A DNA stretch of 60,376 nt from an uncultured virus (IMG/VR IMGVR_UViG_3300001335_000606) (taxonomy: Duplodnaviria; Heunggongvirae; Uroviricota; Caudoviricetes), in the IMG/VR virus record IMGVR_UViG_3300001335_000606; one strand, given 5' to 3'. A model generated the notes under the pieces. The model was given only the letters and a program-made list of their open reading frames with translations. It did no database searches and was not told the origin of the DNA. The stretch's first letter is position 1. Each line of letters starts with the position of its first letter. The position numbers and the translations under genes are program-made. Positions 28,533 to 52,300 of the stretch are shown one piece after another.

Positions 28533-28778
28533 ATGAAAATAAAACTAAATTTAAGAACTGCACCACTTAAAGAATAGTAGAAAGAAACTAAAAAGAAATA
28601 GTCCGATGTTAAGGCTAATTCTATAAAAAAATAGTAGAACGAAACTAAAAAGAAGTAGTCTGATGATAAGATAAAAGAAGAGTATAACAAACCAATTAAG
28701 AGTGATAGTAAAAAATAGAAAAAAACAACTACTTAGACTAAATCAAGTAAAGCTAAAAAGAGTAAAGCAGAAGAATAA
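28533..28778 (+). CDS. Small Lys/Glu-rich low-complexity protein
   Basis: Internal repeat **xETKKK*SD twice; ends TAA. Confidence 0.65.
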
Positions 28779-28879: not shown

Positions 28880-30622
28880 ATGGAAGTTTCAAGAATTTCC
28901 ACCTTTATTAAAAATGGTAGAGATTATATAAGAATATTTGGTTATAATTAGAACGGATAGCCTGTAAGGAAACTTACACCAGTTCAGAATTATATTTTTG
29001 TTGAAGAGAAAGATTTAAAGAAATTAGGAAAATCCGTATAGATTCAGACAGAATAGTATATATCCTATGATAATCATATAAGTTCGAAAAAATTACGTAA
29101 GGTTATTCTTAAAGGTGCCAGAACCTCTTTTGTACCAAAACCATTGCAAAAAATAAGTTATCAAAGTGATATATCATTAGAAACTAAATATATGCTAGAC
29201 GAGGGCTTGGAATTTTCACGTAAAAGACATATAGCCTTCTATGATATTGAAACTTATTACGATTTTGAAAATGATCCTGAAAGCAACAGTGTAGATCGTG
29301 CCGATTCCCCTATTACATCTATTGCATTTTATTCCAATTTATTAAAAACATATTTCATTTTAGCGTGGCATCCTTCTATAGAAACTGGTGATGATCCGTT
29401 TATTATTGAATAGAAAGGTGATAAGCAATTCTATTATTGTGATTCAGAAGCTACCGTGATTCAAACCTTTTGTGAATTAATAAAAGTTCTAAATGTAGAT
29501 ATCATTACAGGGTGGTTTTCGCATGGATACGATTTACCTTACATTTTGAAGCGTTGTGAAAAACTTTTTGGTTCCATGAATTTAATATCCCCTCTTGAAA
29601 ATGTTTGGATGGGTAATAGAAAGTTTGGGGATGAATACAAGATTAGAATTTCTGGATTAGATACTGTAGATATGATGCAAGGGGTCGGGAAGTTTAATTA
29701 TAAATTGCAAAATAACAAACTCGATACCGCAGCGGAAATGATTTTGGGTTAGAAACATAAAAAATTAAAAACTGCAACATGGCGAGATTGGGAAGATAAT
29801 TTTCAGGGGTTCTTGAAATATGTTGCGAGAGATGTAGAAATCTTGCAATTAATAGACAAAAAACTCAAGGTTTTCGAATTTCTTGTGCAATAGCAAATCC
29901 TTTCAGGAATAACTTCTTTAACTGATATTATGTCTGTTACCCGCCTGATAGATGCTTTATTGATAAAAAGATATTGGGGAGTATATGTGTTTCCTAATAA
30001 CTTAAGAGCTGAACGAGTTAATTTTATGGGAGCAATAACAATAACACCTAAATAGCCTGGAGTTCATCAAAATGTAGCTGTTATGGATTATGCTTCTCTT
30101 TATCCAACTACTATTATGTCTTATAACATTAGTCCTGAGACATTTTTATTTTCAAAGACACAATTAGGTGAAGAAGAATTTGAAAAGCAACTTAAATTTT
30201 TGCAGAAGAACGATATAAAGTATATAGATACGGGTTAGTCTGATTAGATGTTTGGAAAGCGTTACATATTTTTATCTCATGATTAGCATGCAGGAGTTTT
30301 ACCCGAAATCTCCCGTGAACTATATTTGATGCGTAAGGATTTGAAAAGAGAAGCTAAAAAAGGTAAAACTGCTGATTAGAGATTAGTAGCGGATAAAAAA
30401 CAATATGCTATCAAAATAATTCTTAATAGTATATATGGAGCCACAGGGTTTGCTCAATTTAGATTATTTGTTCCTGAATGTGCCGATGCGATAACTTTTT
30501 GGGGCAGAACTGCTGTTAAATTTGCTATGAATAATCTAGATCCTTATGGCAAGGTACTCTACGGTGACACTGACAGTGTTGGATAGAACAGTAATATTAG
30601 ATATAGAATTAAGCAAAAATAA
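28880..30622 (+). CDS. polB: Family B DNA polymerase, N-terminal part, ending in a 15-aa split-intein N-fragment
   Basis: Exo I FYDIET, Exo II GWFSHGYDLPYI, motif A MDYASLYPT, motif B KIILNSIYG, motif C YGDTD then SVG*NSNIRYRIKQK-TAA. Confidence 0.93.
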
Positions 30623-30636
30623 TATGATGTGTTTTG

Positions 30637-30690
30637 AATTGTCTCAGTAATTAGTATTAAGACACTACGGTGTTCCCATAGGAGACAATT
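30637..30690 (+). promoter_or_regulatory. RNA hairpin occluding the SD of the endonuclease gene
   Basis: AATTGTCTC (30637-45) is the exact reverse complement of GAGACAATT (30682-90); inner GACAC-TACG-GTGTT hairpin. Confidence 0.7.
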
Positions 30691-31671
30691 ATGAAAGAAT
30701 ATGTAATTTGCAAATAGTGTGGAAAGAAATTTAAACAGATCACTCACAAACACACTAAAGTTCATGGATTGACCACTAAGCAATATTGTTAGAAATATAA
30801 CTTAAATCCCGGTTAGCTATTATCTGATTCTACAAGATAGAAATCTAAAGTAACTTTGTAGAATATGATGTTATTGTATGGGTAGGAAGAAGGAACAAAA
30901 AGGTTTAAGGAATACAGAAATAAACAAGCTTACACCAATTCTTTAGAATACAAGAAATAGAAATATGGTTGGACTGAAGAATAGTTTAATGAATATAACA
31001 AGGGAAGAGCTGTAACATTATAGTTATCCATTAAACGCCATGGATTATAGAAGGGAACTAAATTGTTTTAGGAATATTGTAATAAACAAGCTTATGCTGG
31101 TTGCAAAATATAGTATTTTATCTAGAAATATGGAAAGATTGAAGGATAGAAAATATTTAAATAGATCGGTAAGCAAAAAGCTATAACATTAGAAAATATG
31201 ATTAGGGTTCATGGGTAGAAATTAGGAAAATAGGTTTATTACAAATGGTTGGGAAAACAATCTAAAACAGGATTTGGAAAGTCTAAAATTTCTCAATAGT
31301 GTTTTAAAGAAATCTCTAGATTATTGTATAGAAATGATTTAAAATTTCGTGAAAACGGAGGGGAAAAGTATTTCTATATTGATGGAAAAGTTTATTATGT
31401 TGATTTATATGACCCATTAACAGGAAAGGTTATTGAATTTTATGGTTCATATTGGCATGCAGATCCCAAATCATATACTCCTAAAGATGTTGTTAATTAT
31501 CCATCGGATATAAAATTATTGGCTTAGAATATATGGCAGAAAGATTAGAAAAGGATAAACATATTGAAAGAAAACACAGATGTTATTTAGGTGTTGGTTA
31601 TTTGGGAAAATGATTATATTAATAACAAGGCAGAAGTTGTAAAGAACTGCATTTAGTTTTTAAGGAGATAA
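30691..31671 (+). CDS. Free-standing homing endonuclease, Vsr/DUF559-like, with N-terminal Zn finger
   Basis: CK*CGKKFKQITHKHTKVH, KYG..EG repeats, VDLYD..KVIEFYGSYWHADP, IWQKD, VLVIWENDY; sits between the polB halves. Confidence 0.82.
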
Positions 31672-31672
31672 A

Positions 31673-32887
31673 ATGACAATTAATAGTTGCACTATCAAGT
31701 GCTTGTTTGACACAATGGCTAAAGAGATTTTTGTTACTTAGGATAACAGATATATTGGAACTCTACCAAATATAGAATTAGAGTATTATGATGAAATAGT
31801 AGGTTAGGTTAAATGGGGCTAGGTTGAATTTATTTAGAAGCATTTTATTGATAAACCTATGTTCAAGATATCATTTAAAAGTGGTGATTATGTTGAAATT
31901 ACAGAAGATCATTCTTTAGTTGTTAAAAGAGATAATAAATTGATATAGACAAAAGTCTATTAGCTTTAGAATGGTGATTAGTTTTTCACGATTAATGGAT
32001 GGGTAGAAATTGAAACTATAGTTCCATTAGAAAGACATGCTAATTGGGTTTATGATATTCAAATGAAAGATAATCCTCATACCTTTTTTGCGCACGGCGT
32101 TTTAGTTCACAATTCTGTATTTTTAAAACTTTCCAAATCAAAATAGGATACTATAAAATTTCTGGAAATATTCAATAAAGAGATTTTATTAAATGGCTTG
32201 ATAAAAAAGTTCAATCCTTTTGTTAATATTGATTATTTTCTTTATGAATTATAGTATTAGAAAGATTTGGATTATATTTATTTCAGTGATAGAAAGAAGC
32301 GATATTATGCTATTGAAAATACAGGAGAGAAGTATGTTCATGGATTGAATATTATCCATAAGGACACTCCAAAATTTATAAAGGAACTATTGGATTAGTT
32401 ATGCGAAAAAGCGGTAAAGAATGGAATAGTTTTAGAAGATTTGAAGGAAACTTTTTAGAAACTTAAAACAGCTGATTACAAAAATATTGCTGTTCATAAA
32501 ACCTTTACAAAAAAGTTTTCCCAATATAATAAAATGATTCCTCAACATGTTGCTGGTGCTTTATACGCAAATTAGCATTTAAATTTGAAGATTAAGCATT
32601 CGGATGTGGTATTTCTTTTTTACATAAATTCCTTTTGCGAACCTGATATAAAAGTTAAAGATAGAAAAAATGTTATTTGTTTAAGAGAATAGGATTTTGG
32701 TGTAATTAAGGAGAGTGGAAAATTTGAAATAGATTATGTCCAGTTAATGGAAAAACAAATTATTCAACCTCTTCGTGAATTTGATAAAATACCTATTGTA
32801 GAACAAACCATAAACGAATGGTGCAAATTAATGGAAGATAATTATAGATTTTCCAAAATTAAAGGTTATGTATTTAAGAAGAGGTGA
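31673..32887 (+). CDS. polB: Split-intein C-fragment (147 aa) fused to PolB C-terminal part
   Basis: AAGGAG SD; block B VEITEDHSL, block F/G WVYDIQM..FFAHGVLVHN then SVF; L*Y*K, KKRYY, PQHVAGA. Confidence 0.92.
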
Positions 32888-47658: not shown

Positions 47659-48512
47659 TTACGGGACTTAGAATTTCACAAAATAGCATCCCAGGATATT
47701 ATGGGTTTAAATTAAGTGGATATTAGCAAGAAACACTTGCTTATTAGACAAGAGTTTTAGCCGATGGTGGGGTTGTTAGTGATTTGGCATTAGTGGATGA
47801 AGATTTCAAGCTTTTTAAAGGTTAGGGTCTAATTCCTTATCATATGGTTATTTCATACGGTGGATATTTAACATATAGTACAGATTATGTAAAAAAAGCA
47901 TATGCTTTATATGGTTTGGATGTTAGACCTGATGTTTTAACTGATATTAATTACATGCCATATTATAGTTCAAGTGGGGCATTAAATAATATATCTTCGT
48001 TTGATTATTGGCACCAATCTTCAGGTTTGAAAGTTTAGTATGCACAAGTATTAACTTAGCCTTTTTAGGTATTTAATGTTTTAGGGGCATCTAGAGATGG
48101 AAATGTAGGGGCAACAACAAATTATGTATTTGATGCTGTTGATGGTACTAATAGAGTTTTAACTTATAAAACCAGTACAACTAATGCAAGATTTTGGGGA
48201 TTGGGTGGTCAATATATCATATCAACTACAACTGCTCCTTTTGCTACTGCTTCTTGTTATTCGGCATTAGCTAGTGGTTCTACGTCTAAAATATATATAA
48301 ATGGAGTATAGGATGCTTCAGGGCAAGTTGGAAGCAGTACAAATTATTTTGGGGGTATAACCATAGGTAAAAGATATGCTCAATCAGGTGCATATCAATC
48401 TTATAAAGGTGAAATATACGTAACAATAGTATTTACAGCTTCATTAACCACAAATCAAAGAACGAGTTTATGCCAATATTTTGGAAATAGATTTGGAATA
48501 ACAATATCATAA
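47655..48512 (+). CDS. Tail-associated lectin-fold protein, paralogous N-terminus to 44520 gene
   Basis: Shared Y*QETLxY*TRVL segment; IYING, IG..Y.GEIY C-terminal pattern. Confidence 0.65.
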
Positions 48513-48533
48513 ACAAGGAAATAATCAATAATA

Positions 48534-49010
48534 ATGAGTTTATCAATTGGCAAAGGAATTAAGCTATACTAGGGATTAAGCGTAGGAACTTAGCAGATTG
48601 GCATAGTATAGACTAGATTATTTACAATTCAAAATATATTATGGAGTGTTAAGTGGAGACATGTAGAGGGCGAATTTGAGGGGCATCCTCAGATTCAAGC
48701 CGAATATGATTGTGCCTAGTATAAAAATAATTATTGGCTTGTTCTTAGAGATGATAATTTTGCTTATGTCTATCAGAGACTTAATGGGTTTGGTAACTTT
48801 AAAGGTGATCTTCAAAACCTTCTAGTATATACATATAATCTGCAATCATACAATGGCCAGAAATCTTGTTTAATAGATGCAAAAGTAGATTTTTATAGGG
48901 ATGATCATCGTTAGATAACCATATACAATTAGGGAAATGAATCAAAATTTTTTTATAAAGAGGACAGTTATTATTAGAATGTAATTTAGTTAGCACTTGA
49001 TAATTAGTAA
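48534..49010 (+). CDS. Hypothetical virion-associated protein
   Basis: MSLSIGKGIKL N-terminus resembles neighbours; open through TAG to TAA. Confidence 0.6.
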
Positions 49011-49014
49011 TATA

Positions 49015-49291
49015 TAGAGTGAATAAAGTCCAAGAGAGAGATAAGATAGTCCGATCTATATGGAAACATATAGCTAACATAAATGTTTTGCTGATCGCAT
49101 TGGATTAACAACAGCATAGTCCCTTATAACTGGATGAATTCGGTGAAACTCTGACCAGATAATGTTGAAGACAATACCGAGCCAAGCCATAGACCATTCT
49201 ATGGAAGGTGTAGAGACTACTGGAGGCAAAATGGGTTGCCTTAATAACCAGCTTGAGCGTCCAGCTACTTTCTTGGACTTTTAACACTCTA
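49015..49291 (+). ncRNA. Circularly permuted group I intron-like ribozyme (IA-like core, opened in P8)
   Basis: Order S-P9-omegaG-P1-P-Q-R-P7.1-P3'-P8; P1, P3, P4, P6a, P7, P7.1, P8, P9 and P9.0 can all be base-paired. Confidence 0.85.
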
Positions 49292-49317
49292 AAATTTTAG
49301 GAGATATACCATATCCG

Positions 49318-52300
49318 ATGGATAAAACGATTTTAAACGGAAGCAAGGCAAGATTTTATAACTAGGGTAATTCTTAGTCAGGTTCTATTCAATATACAGA
49401 TAGCAAATTATCTATCAAGGGTAATAGTGCAGGAAGTGGAGTATTAATTACTGACGGTAAATTGTATCTAAAAAGCGGAGAAGATACAACTAGTATTATA
49501 TATGATAATGCAACTTAGGGTGTATAGTTTCCAGATGGTGTTTTGTATATTGGCACTGGCAGTAGCAAAGGTGCAATTAAGTTGTAGGATGGAATTTTGA
49601 ATTTTTATACTGATTCCGTTTTTAATGGTAATGTTACGGCAAGTGGGGCAATTACTGCTTCTAATGCTGTATTTTCTGATTATGTTTCAATTGGCCAATA
49701 TGAGGTTCCGGGGATTGGATTTCTTTATAATACCAATAAACCTGTATTGTGGCGTTTGCAAACTTAGCAAATGATAGTTTATGATGCCGATAGTAGTGGC
49801 AACATGTTAATATTAGATCCAGATGACGATTTAATTAGTATCGGGGAACCTCCTTATTTCGTTACGACTTCAATCAATTTAAGTTTGGGTTCTTTACCTC
49901 CGTTGTGTAGCGGATCGTTAAATGTTGGGGGGTGGATATATTCAACATAGGGATATACAAGTAGTGCAGGCGATATTGTAATTGGTGGCGATATTTCAGC
50001 TTCGACTATAAATGCAAATACAGGATTCACTACTAGTGGTTATTCAAAAGTAGGAGGAAATTTCCAATTAGGTGGAACCGCATCCTCTCCTTTTTATGCC
50101 TCCGGATTTGGCGGTGATGGTTGGTCTATTTATGAGGATAATGGCAGGCATATTGCTTAGTTTGACGATTTATGGGTTCGTGGTTCTATGAATGTCTATG
50201 AAATGATTATTAATCAGATTAGGGCAACTAATGGTAGTTTGTGGGTAAGTGACGCTGCAAAGGCAGTTAGTGCATCGATTGTTGGAGAGGATTATGGATA
50301 TGGCTTGCGTTTGCAATTTGAGACGGGATCAATATTACCATTTGTTTAGAATGATATTTTAAGAAGCAAAAGGTGGAGGACTTCGGGAAGTGTTATTTCC
50401 AGCATTTGGGATGCAATTTTTAGAGTTTACTCTGTTGACTATGGGAATGCAATTGTTTAGTTTGATTATTGGGTGAAGCCGTATTACACTTCTTCAAATA
50501 TTACTTCAATGTAGGATTTTGCATATACATTAAGTATTGAAGGTTCATAGTGGGTAAGAGTTGGTTATAGTGGAAGTAACGATAATAGAAAAGGTTCAAT
50601 ATATTTAACTTCAAATGATATGGGTGGGCCATTTTTAGATGTTTATAACGATATAGACACTGTTGCCGAAGCATATGGTGGAATTTCCGAAAGTGTAACT
50701 ACGTCAAAGGTTAAAGTAAGATTAGGTAGACTAACTGGAATCGTGGATAATTCGTTTGATCCTTCTAATTTACAGGGTTATGGTCTATATAGTGATAATG
50801 CTTATTTAAAGGGAACACTTAGTGCAGCCTAGGGTACATTTAGTGGAAGAATTACTGCTAATGAAGGATATATTGGTAATTGGAATATAAATGCTGAATC
50901 CTTGTATAAAGAAGACGAAGATTCTGGATTTACTATGTCATTAACAAGTTCTGCATCAGGTGCAGGATTATTTGTTTATAGCACTTCAGCACCAGCATGG
51001 AGTCAATCTCATACTCCAATATATATAGGTTCTAATGGAAAGTTCTCACTTGGTAACCAATTAGTTTTTGATAATGGAATGTTGACCATATCTGGAATTT
51101 AGGCGGAAGTAGCGTAGCTTGGTGGTTGGAGTGTAAATTAGGATTCGATATATTCTACTGGAATTACATTGTCTAGTGCAACTAATCCCTCAATACAAAT
51201 AGGTGAAGCGACTGCATTTGATACTGGTACAGGCATTTTTATGTCTGGGTCTTCAGCTACATCGTATTTAAGAATTGGATAGACAGTAGGAGCAGGAGAT
51301 AAATATCTATTGTGGGATGGAGCAAATCTTTCTTGGCAAACACCTAATTTTACACTTAGCTCTGCTGGAATATTAACTTTAACTGGTTCATTAAATGCTA
51401 CTAGCGGTAATATTGGTGGACTGGTTCATTAAATGCTACTAGCGGTAATATTGGTGGGTGGGGTATTGGCCAGAATAGATTATATAGTAATCATATTACA
51501 ATTAGCTCTGCTTTAAACGAGGAACGAATCAGTATTGATGCCTTGTATGCTGGTTTTGATTATCCAGGAATATATTTTGGATATAGTTAGGGTTTTCAAG
51601 CATTTTCTTTGGTAAACGCATCACGGCAGGGTGTATTGTGGTTAAATGATACAATTTATATATCAGCATCTAATTTTGAATTAGATTCTGATGGCAAGAT
51701 ATCTGCAAATGAAGCTACTATAAGCGGTTCTATAAGTGCTTCTTCTGGGCAAATAGGCGGTTGGAGTATTGGGGAAAATAATCTTTCACAAGATGGAGCA
51801 ATAGAACTTGGGTCTTCTTCTGTTACAACAAGTGATATATTTATTGGTTCCCAAGATGGCTATCCATATTTTCAATTAGGTGAAGAATTAATATATAGTA
51901 ATAGTGCATTGATATTAACAGGTTCAATATATACAAATAATGGCTATTTTAATGGATAGATTACAGCGGAAACAGGTTCTATTGGTGGATGGACGATAAG
52001 TACAGACAATATATCGTCTAGTGGAATATAGTTGGATTCTTCAACCCCTTCAATTAAACTTGGTGCTCAAGCGTATTTGGTGCTCAAGCGTATGGGGATG
52101 AAGGTATATGGTTTGGCAAAGGCAATCAATACTCAATGTCCCTTTATAATAACACCGACAATTATCTAAAATGGAATGGTTCATATTTAGAAATAAAATC
52201 CTAGAAATTATCTTTAACAGAGGATTCTTTAACGCTTTCCGGCTCAATTACAACGAGTAATGGGTTAATTGGAAATTGGGCAATTAATGAAAGTGGTATA

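Follow-up and report, generated by a model that had tools for sequence, protein, structure and literature searches.

The standard way to engineer circular RNA is with permuted group I introns. In these permuted intron-exon (PIE) constructs, guanosine attacks at the 5' splice site and back-splicing then yields a circular exon, as set out in the passages of PMC4344496 that treat the chemistry. Here we describe an element of this layout in a natural setting, located at positions 49015-49291 on the + strand of a 60-kb stretch of DNA from an uncultured phage (IMG/VR record IMGVR_UViG_3300001335_000606; 60,376 nucleotides (nt), referred to as the window). Like PIE constructs from Anabaena, Tetrahymena and T4 td, it is ordered 3' half, exon, 5' half and is broken in a peripheral loop; unlike them it is natural, conserved in phages and flanked by functional genes, it encloses a non-coding exon of 20 nt, and the cutting of the mRNA may itself be the point.

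The nearest natural group I example that the literature search turned up is the giant ND5-717 intron of mushroom-coral mitochondria, which is removed by back-splicing (Chi et al. 2019, PMC6545197). In the portions of that paper that describe it, ND5-717 shares with the window element a permuted intron-exon precursor and a permutation at P8, but it holds nearly the whole circular genome inside P8 and joins real ND5 coding exons, whereas the window element is a compact 277-nt unit without a coding exon. Circularly permuted group II ribozymes of bacteria, as covered in the relevant sections of Roth et al. (2021, PMC8637638), are likewise natural and stand-alone, interrupt no open reading frame (ORF) and make RNA circles, although they belong to another ribozyme class, use branching chemistry, are bacterial or plasmid-borne and are associated with AcpG. 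There are also group I ribozymes in which, as in the window, the fold shapes an mRNA end or its expression and no interrupted gene is repaired. One is the cyclic di-GMP (c-di-GMP)-controlled ribozyme in a 5' untranslated region of Clostridioides difficile. Another is the lariat-capping ribozyme GIR1, described in part of PMC8637638 as group I-derived with a non-splicing role. Both have the standard element order, and in GIR1 the chemistry has changed, whereas in the window element only the topology has. A search of full-text literature returned no compact stand-alone natural permuted group I ribozyme in phages or bacteria, with most subscription journals outside its coverage, so that absence from print is unproven. 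The window element combines a group I fold, and presumably group I chemistry, with a natural permuted topology and a role other than that of an intron.

Group I homology and order of the window element

All of the group I core elements are present on the + strand of 49015-49291, with the 3' part preceding the 5' part. The RNA reads P8 3' strand, J8/7, P7 3' strand, P9, omega-G and exon, followed by a 5' half ordered P1, P3, P4-P6, P7, P7.1, P3' and P8 5' strand (Table 1). The helix strands proposed in an initial annotation made from the letters alone (P8, S, P9, P1, P3, P, Q, P6, R, P7.1, P3' and the clamp) all lie where it had placed them. A conserved catalytic core with P, Q, R and S elements is evident from Rfam, from a profile match of 133 bits and from the pairing of all helices, and both the U.G wobble in P1 (U49105.G49119) and, by homology, a terminal omega-G (G49085) are in place. 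The canonical order P1 ... P7-P3'-P8-P7'-P9-omega-G is not followed, since P8', P7', P9 and omega-G lead. The arrangement is that of a permuted intron-exon unit, in which the 3' splice site comes first, an exon separates it from the 5' site, and the halves of an opened loop re-pair.

The Rfam group I model RF00028 (gathering score 50 bits) matches the core from P3 to P3' at 49128-49265 (26.2 bits, E 1.4e-4, model positions 48-158) and the P7'/P9 end at ~49040-49073, upstream of the core (19.5 bits, E 0.015); there is no single colinear match at gathering, the best reaching 26.2 bits in two pieces that are out of order. Searched across the whole window, Rfam gave 0 gathering-level matches, and none to group I at E <= 1. 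The + strand of the element folds to -83.5 kcal/mol, compared with -60.0 +/- 4.8 kcal/mol for shuffles (z -4.9; 0/200 shuffles equal), and the minimum-energy fold already includes the end-to-end helix, P9, P4, P6 and P7.1. The minus strand is equally foldable (z -5.5), so energy alone cannot assign the strand; homology and gene direction do.

The closest GenBank relative by blastn is an element in Flavobacterium phage immuto, with 86.5% identity in two pieces; it has the standard order and scores 76.9 bits. Among GenBank phages, 95 records match portions of the window element and none spans at least 80% of it. The R/P7.1 motif was found at 60 viral loci in IMG/VR. The S element follows R by 70-109 nt in 57 of the 60, three being without S by regular expression, and only the window has S before R (163 nt; position -163). 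The 5' half of the window element maps to positions 226-357 of the relatives and its 3' half to 373-418, the reverse of the window order. Fifteen standard relatives align over the full length of the element once it is re-permuted by script; the sole large difference is its much longer P8. Using nhmmer and a profile built from the 57 standard-order relatives as a surrogate for the Rfam model, two out-of-order matches of 133.1 and 9.5 bits become a single colinear match of 146.5 bits on re-permutation, the gain that the initial annotation had anticipated. Judged by its standard-order relatives, which show the swap directly, the window element is circularly permuted.

The order is also seen in assemblies of sequencing runs. 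Logan contigs from four DNA runs in 2 studies carry 48700-49600 with 0-1 differences and no joints, and three of the four runs have the stretch in one piece at a depth of 8-31; three of the runs are possibly the source of the window DNA, and the runs are not all independent. Misassembly at the 49097-49106 junction, raised at the outset as a possible source of error, is contradicted by these run assemblies. Partner half-introns are likewise missing from the 60-kb window, which holds no second group I core or S/R element.

Permuted homologues, covariation and splice sites

A pattern scan of metagenomes for the order S..P..R gave seven loci, three of which (L107, L110 and L112) are the same permuted element. 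The other four (L108/L113 and L109/L111) were set aside as neighbouring elements in standard order, each of which has an R and, after it, an S of its own; also set aside was L063, the sole match to the pattern in viral_contigs, which consists of two adjacent standard introns. A search of viral_contigs for the omega tail plus GGAT gave only three already known loci. The three permuted homologues also come from TAG-recoded, diverged phage, and in homologous contigs the element sits between orthologues of the same two genes. The upstream protein is 43% identical to a 156-aa ORF of L110, and over its N-terminal 120 aa the fibre protein shares 63% identity with the ORF next after the ribozyme in L110. 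The proposal that the element interrupts no gene is supported by flanking ORFs that are complete here and have separate orthologues in L110; with the splice sites inverted as well, this is not an interruption of a gene repaired by exon joining. Comparison of the window with L110 gives 79.4% identity for the ribozyme (S to P3') and 59.5% for the upstream gene, and the third codon positions of the fibre N-terminus agree at 68/120. The ribozyme is thus more conserved than either, which indicates that the RNA is under purifying selection. Rfam matches in L110 (34.1 and 28.8 bits) are likewise in swapped order.

Applied unaided to the four sequences, RNAalifold draws the P8 closure, P9, P3, P4, P5, P6 and P7.1, with a total of 72 pairs, 14 of which have compensatory double changes. 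For counting we used a hand structure of 64 pairs, with the P7 pseudoknot added and P1 omitted, as P1 is misregistered by MAFFT. In this structure 98.9% of 188 cells are paired and 14 pairs are changed on both sides, a number reached by 0/500 shuffles; slid controls are 38-43% paired with at most 2 double-changed pairs. The 16 pairs of the P8 closure are 100% paired in three distinct sequences, six of them compensatory, with strands CTTTCTTGGACTTT/AAAGTCCAAGAGAG in the window and CCCTTTTAACTC/GAGTTAAAAGGG in L107. This covarying closure bears out the suggestion that the break is in the P8 loop, as in engineered permuted constructs. The observed P8 duplex energies are attained by 0, 13 and 0/1000 shuffles. 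In L107 and L110, P1 is GGAT|CA with TG.GTCC, which preserves the wobble and, relative to the window, makes a compensatory change at +1. Homologues with covariation, which had been sought as a check, thus exist in L107, L110 and L112. Order, homologues, covariation and assemblies all agree with a natural stand-alone circularly permuted group I ribozyme, as first proposed, and we are highly confident that the element is real, conserved and circularly permuted.

The 3' splice site has had to be moved. In a subfamily made up of 29 viral and 14 genomic loci (43 in all) the element ends in ...CTAACATAAATG, and in copies within 23S rRNA genes the rRNA resumes right after the G of this tail, at two different insertion sites; L098 and L104 were confirmed to lie within large-subunit rRNA genes. 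The corresponding tail is TAACATAAATG in the window (49075-49085) and TAACATCAATG in permuted homologues of the L107 type. Given the conservation of this tail across 43 loci and the start of the rRNA exon after its G, the omega-G is G49085 and not, as the initial annotation had it, G49097. With this, the enclosed exon becomes 49086-49105, 20 nt in place of the 8-nt CAUUGGAU, and the argument that the exon was too short to circularise falls, as do (CAUUGGAU)n multimers. The P9.0 pairing GAT/ATC was likewise not confirmed, and what had been taken for a small hairpin at 49076-87 belongs to the conserved 3' tail. The exon measures 20, 21, 20 and 20 nt in the four permuted copies, with a weak internal hairpin or none (0 to -4.6 kcal/mol).

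Two further features of these regions were noted. The P7 3' strand (49047-49052) and the P1 guide strand (49117-49122) are the same hexamer, TAGTCC; the exon GGAT could alternatively pair with the S element, and RNAalifold drew such a helix. Several 23S rRNA genes from uncultured bacteria (L099, L100, L103, L105, L106; L108/L113, L109/L111) carry two subfamily introns each, separated by exons of ~14-16 nt, and several of the hosts are candidate-phyla lineages.

A probable processing role and its alternatives

We favour the reading, with a probability of about 0.62 once activity is included, that this is a ribozyme kept by selection, opened in the P8 loop and acting as a G-dependent processing or RNA-cyclase enzyme. 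The 16-bp P8, together with a 7-bp outer clamp in the window phage, would hold the ends together and allow a normal core to form. Group I chemistry has no way of joining the flanking genes, given that the 3' splice site (49085/49086) comes ahead of the 5' one (49105/49106). Attack by guanosine or GTP after U49105 would cut the late polycistronic RNA, and the added G would go to the downstream piece, in which the 186-nt 5' half would form a leader ahead of the ribosome-binding site and tail-fibre gene. In a second step, attack by the 3'-OH of U49105 after G49085 could free the 20-nt exon as a circle, or the 3' site could be hydrolysed. The upstream message would then terminate at omega-G, and both mRNA pieces could remain annealed via P8. 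Placed ahead of the tail-fibre cistron, the element would work not as an intron but as a ribozyme with an RNA-processing or RNA-cyclase function. Processing is favoured as the selected role because the exon can vary freely in sequence and because relatives of the element lie at gene borders. We infer catalysis, its products and a benefit to the phage from sequence and comparison. As a conserved natural version of 250-277 nt, the element shows that evolution arrived at the engineered design, and for circular-RNA work it could provide an existing small scaffold with a P8 that clamps itself.

Related elements with standard order lie at gene borders. The closest of these in the 3' half are L114 (2259-2560), L115 (the immuto element, L001 2886-3180) and L116, all located directly after the stop codon of a gene in late-gene regions. 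Terminator-like hairpins follow them, and in L115 and L116 the target site precedes the hairpins. None has a local P1 hairpin; their target strand appears to lie downstream of the core, the 5' guide pairing 6/6, including the U.G wobble, with a GGAT ~216 nt downstream that lies 17-19 nt after omega-G. The flanking pairs are compensatory (A-U, U-A or G-C at one end, C-G or A-U at +1). The same downstream-target arrangement is seen in eight loci that we refer to as the GCCC group (L003, L024, L036, L037, L042, L055, L056 and L058), with the complement (A/T)GGGT|N found 50-107 nt after S and 2-10 nt before the ATG of the next gene and a +1 pair that covaries as C-G, A-U or G-C. A wobble-anchored count is noisy outside the GCCC group and L114-L116. 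A duplex-energy test for guide pairing was non-discriminating in AT-rich sequence and was dropped; splicing that alters the C-terminus in L114-L116 was also dropped, as the upstream GGAT sites make only 4 pairs and the frames are inconsistent. The upstream proteins of the two topologies were compared and are not homologous. By these features the downstream-target elements look like processing ribozymes and not introns.

These relatives and the window element belong to the same subfamily, sharing the R/P7.1 motif and the S element, with the TAACATAAATG tail in L114-L116 and up to 86.5% identity. The relatives keep a closed P8 hairpin and have a 5' guide, its complement after P9 and no local P1, whereas the window element has a closed, local P1 hairpin and an opened P8, and is thus not of the downstream-target kind. 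Its P1 loop (…CAGCA) is similar to what follows GGATC in immuto. This pattern would fit a tandem duplication of a downstream-target element as the origin, with loss of the outer parts up to P8. A wider reading, which we hold tentatively and rate as a whole at somewhat below an even chance, is that phages carry a family of ex-intron group I ribozymes in at least two topologies, with the P1 substrate strand behind the core or, as in the window, the P8 loop opened, and that these would make GTP-dependent cuts in late operons at gene borders, leaving GTP-derived 5' ends, folded leaders and circles of 17-21 nt. On that reading the window element would be the first compact group I ribozyme of PIE type to come from nature. 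Taken with its downstream-target relatives, the window element points to a reuse of intron ribozymes by phages for processing mRNA where genes meet. In that case, standard-order covariance models, which give 0 gathering matches here, undercount such ribozymes.

Several observations weigh against activity or against the strength of the case. In native order the Rfam scores stay under gathering (26.2 vs 50 bits), and L107, L112 and L116 have no Rfam match at E <= 0.1. There are only three distinct permuted sequences, from two lineages, so the covariation is essentially one deep comparison. In L110 and L107 the P8 duplex energy is equalled by one other natural 30-mer nearby, and the case for P8 there is therefore one of position and covariation and not of energy. 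The exon sequence is unconserved except for its GGAT end, and a convincing P10 was sought and none found; a candidate pairing of 49089-93 (UGCUG) with 49112-16 (CAGCA) has no counterpart in L107 and is not claimed. No RNA run is among the sequencing runs that contain the stretch.

The alternative that we take most seriously, albeit as an unlikely one, is a structured but catalytically idle relic of a rearranged intron, produced for example by tandem duplication and two deletions, which might act as an mRNA stabiliser, as a spacer, or as conserved DNA where tail-fibre modules recombine. Adjacent group I introns with exons of 14-60 nt, such as L063, L108/L113, L109/L111 and L099-L106, yield the same local order S-P9-exon-P1-P3, and the tail-fibre genes do part ways directly beyond a conserved N-terminus. 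A site for DNA recombination alone, however, would have no need of compensatory RNA pairs, and here 14 pairs are kept by double changes, the catalytic-core helices and joining segments are all intact, and the U.G wobble and omega-G tail are retained in both lineages; moreover, the halves fit through a covarying P8, which would be unexpected for remnants of different introns. Less probable again, at around one chance in ten, is that the ribozyme is active and that the selected product is the 17-21-nt exon RNA, circular or linear, with the mRNA cut incidental. Consistent with this, length is held (20-21 nt in the permuted copies, and 17-19 nt from omega-G to GGAT in L114-L116), both topologies would release the same kind of piece in different gene contexts, and L114-L116 precede terminator-like hairpins and not a gene. 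The product itself, however, would be unconserved apart from GGAT, with at best a feeble hairpin.

The version in the initial annotation, with omega-G at 49097, the exon CAUUGGAU and multimers or trans-splicing, appears very improbable. The ATC before G49097 could indeed pair with GAT as P9.0, but beyond the evidence from the 43 tails and from the exons that start right after the G of the tail at two rRNA sites, 49086-49097 is unconserved in L107 and L110. We give the least credence, amounting to almost none, to an artefact of assembly or to trans-splicing halves of two conventional or split introns. Organellar trans-splicing group I introns that are split in peripheral loops are known, on the evidence of the pertinent part of PMC2731911. 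The contigs of four runs from two studies, with their 0-1 differences over 48700-49600 and lack of joints, speak against an artefact, as do three independent metagenome contigs that share the order. As for split halves, the rest of the window offers neither a core nor an S/R element as partner, the two halves pair with each other, and the flanks are complete genes that are wrongly placed as exons.

Coordinates and genome context

The coordinates of the element and its flanking genes are collected in Table 1. The 7-bp outer clamp is specific to the window, and L107, L110 and L112 do not have it.

Table 1. Parts of the permuted group I element and the genes on either side of it; TAG is read as glutamine (Q) in the genes.
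Feature	Positions	Strand	Evidence or remark
Upstream gene	48534..49010	+	158 aa with TAG=Q; stop codon 5 nt ahead of ribozyme
Outer clamp, 3'-half strand TAGAGTG	49015..49021	+	pairs with 49285-49291, 7/7 pairs
P8 3' strand AAAGTCCAAGAGAG plus AG	49025..49040	+	16-pair helix with 49265-49281
J8/7 ATAAGA	49041..49046	+	aligns with J8/7 of standard-order relatives
P7 3' strand (S element) TAGTCC	49047..49052	+	pairs with 49213 and 49215-49219; invariant
P9 hairpin CTATATG-GAAA-CATATAG	49056..49073	+	7 pairs, 2 compensatory
Conserved 3' tail TAACATAAATG, G49085 = omega-G	49075..49085	+	homology; 3' splice site 49085/49086
Enclosed mini-exon TTTTGCTGATCGCATTGGAT, 20 nt	49086..49105	+	ends at 5' splice site U49105; weak internal hairpin
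P1 hairpin, GGAT|TA 49102-07 with TA.GTCC 49117-22	49102..49122	+	6/6 pairs, wobble U49105.G49119
P3 5' strand CTGGATG	49130..49136	+	Rfam match, pairing, covariation count
P4 (TTCGGTG with TACCGAG) around P5	49139..49181	+	Rfam match, RNAalifold, pair count
P6 hairpin CCATAGA-CCAT-TCTATGG	49187..49204	+	4 compensatory pairs
P7 5' strand (R element) G-A-GACTA, bulged A49214	49213..49219	+	Rfam match, pairing
P7.1 extension	49220..49251	+	RNAalifold, pair count; motif marks phage subfamily
P3 3' strand CGTCCAG	49258..49264	+	Rfam match, pairing
P8 5' strand CT, bulged A, CTTTCTTGGACTTT	49265..49281	+	pairs with P8 3' strand
Outer clamp, 5'-half strand CACTCTA	49285..49291	+	partner of 49015-49021
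Ribosome-binding site AGGAG (49299-49303), then tail-fibre gene (ATG 49318)	49299..51432	+	704 aa with TAG=Q

TAG is a sense codon in the window phage, which occurs in freshwater habitats. Translation table 11 gives only 14 ORFs of at least 100 aa, and reading TAG as Q gives a continuous run of long + strand ORFs across the window. No tRNA genes were found in the 60 kb, and hence no suppressor tRNA. Family searches identify a tape-measure protein, DNA polymerase B, a helicase and a tail fibre among the encoded proteins. The element occupies the 307-nt gap between ORFs 48534-49010 and 49318-51432, and a scan of 48300-49700 showed no terminator-like site and no convincing promoter. The downstream ORF matches PHROG 33450 tail fiber (E 7e-20), and the upstream 158-aa protein matched no PHROG or Pfam family. 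Alignment of the 158-aa protein or of the fibre N-terminus gave no relatives in IMG/VR.

The fibre genes share an N-terminus of ~80-120 aa (window 49318-49677, L110 3253-3612, L112 2673-3032) and then diverge completely. The L110 and L112 fibres part after about residue 80, although the two are close relatives, and those of the window and L110 part after ~120 aa. This divergence points to a swapping of receptor-binding modules just 3' of the ribozyme.

Elsewhere in the window, an S-like match at 28596-28606 has one mismatch, lies in a lysine-rich repeat ORF, shows no group I signal and was put down to chance. This small ORF (28533-28778), upstream of the polymerase gene, has direct repeats in which …AAAGAAACTAAAAAGAAATAGTCCGATG… occurs twice. 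The family B DNA polymerase ORF (28880-30622) stops just past its YGDTDS motif. It is followed by a 333-aa ORF (30670-31671) with a ROS/MucR-type zinc-finger match and by a 404-aa ORF (31673-32887) that opens with a weak match to an intein-splicing domain. Possible readings of 28880-32887 are a split polymerase that carries an inserted mobile gene, and a split intein.

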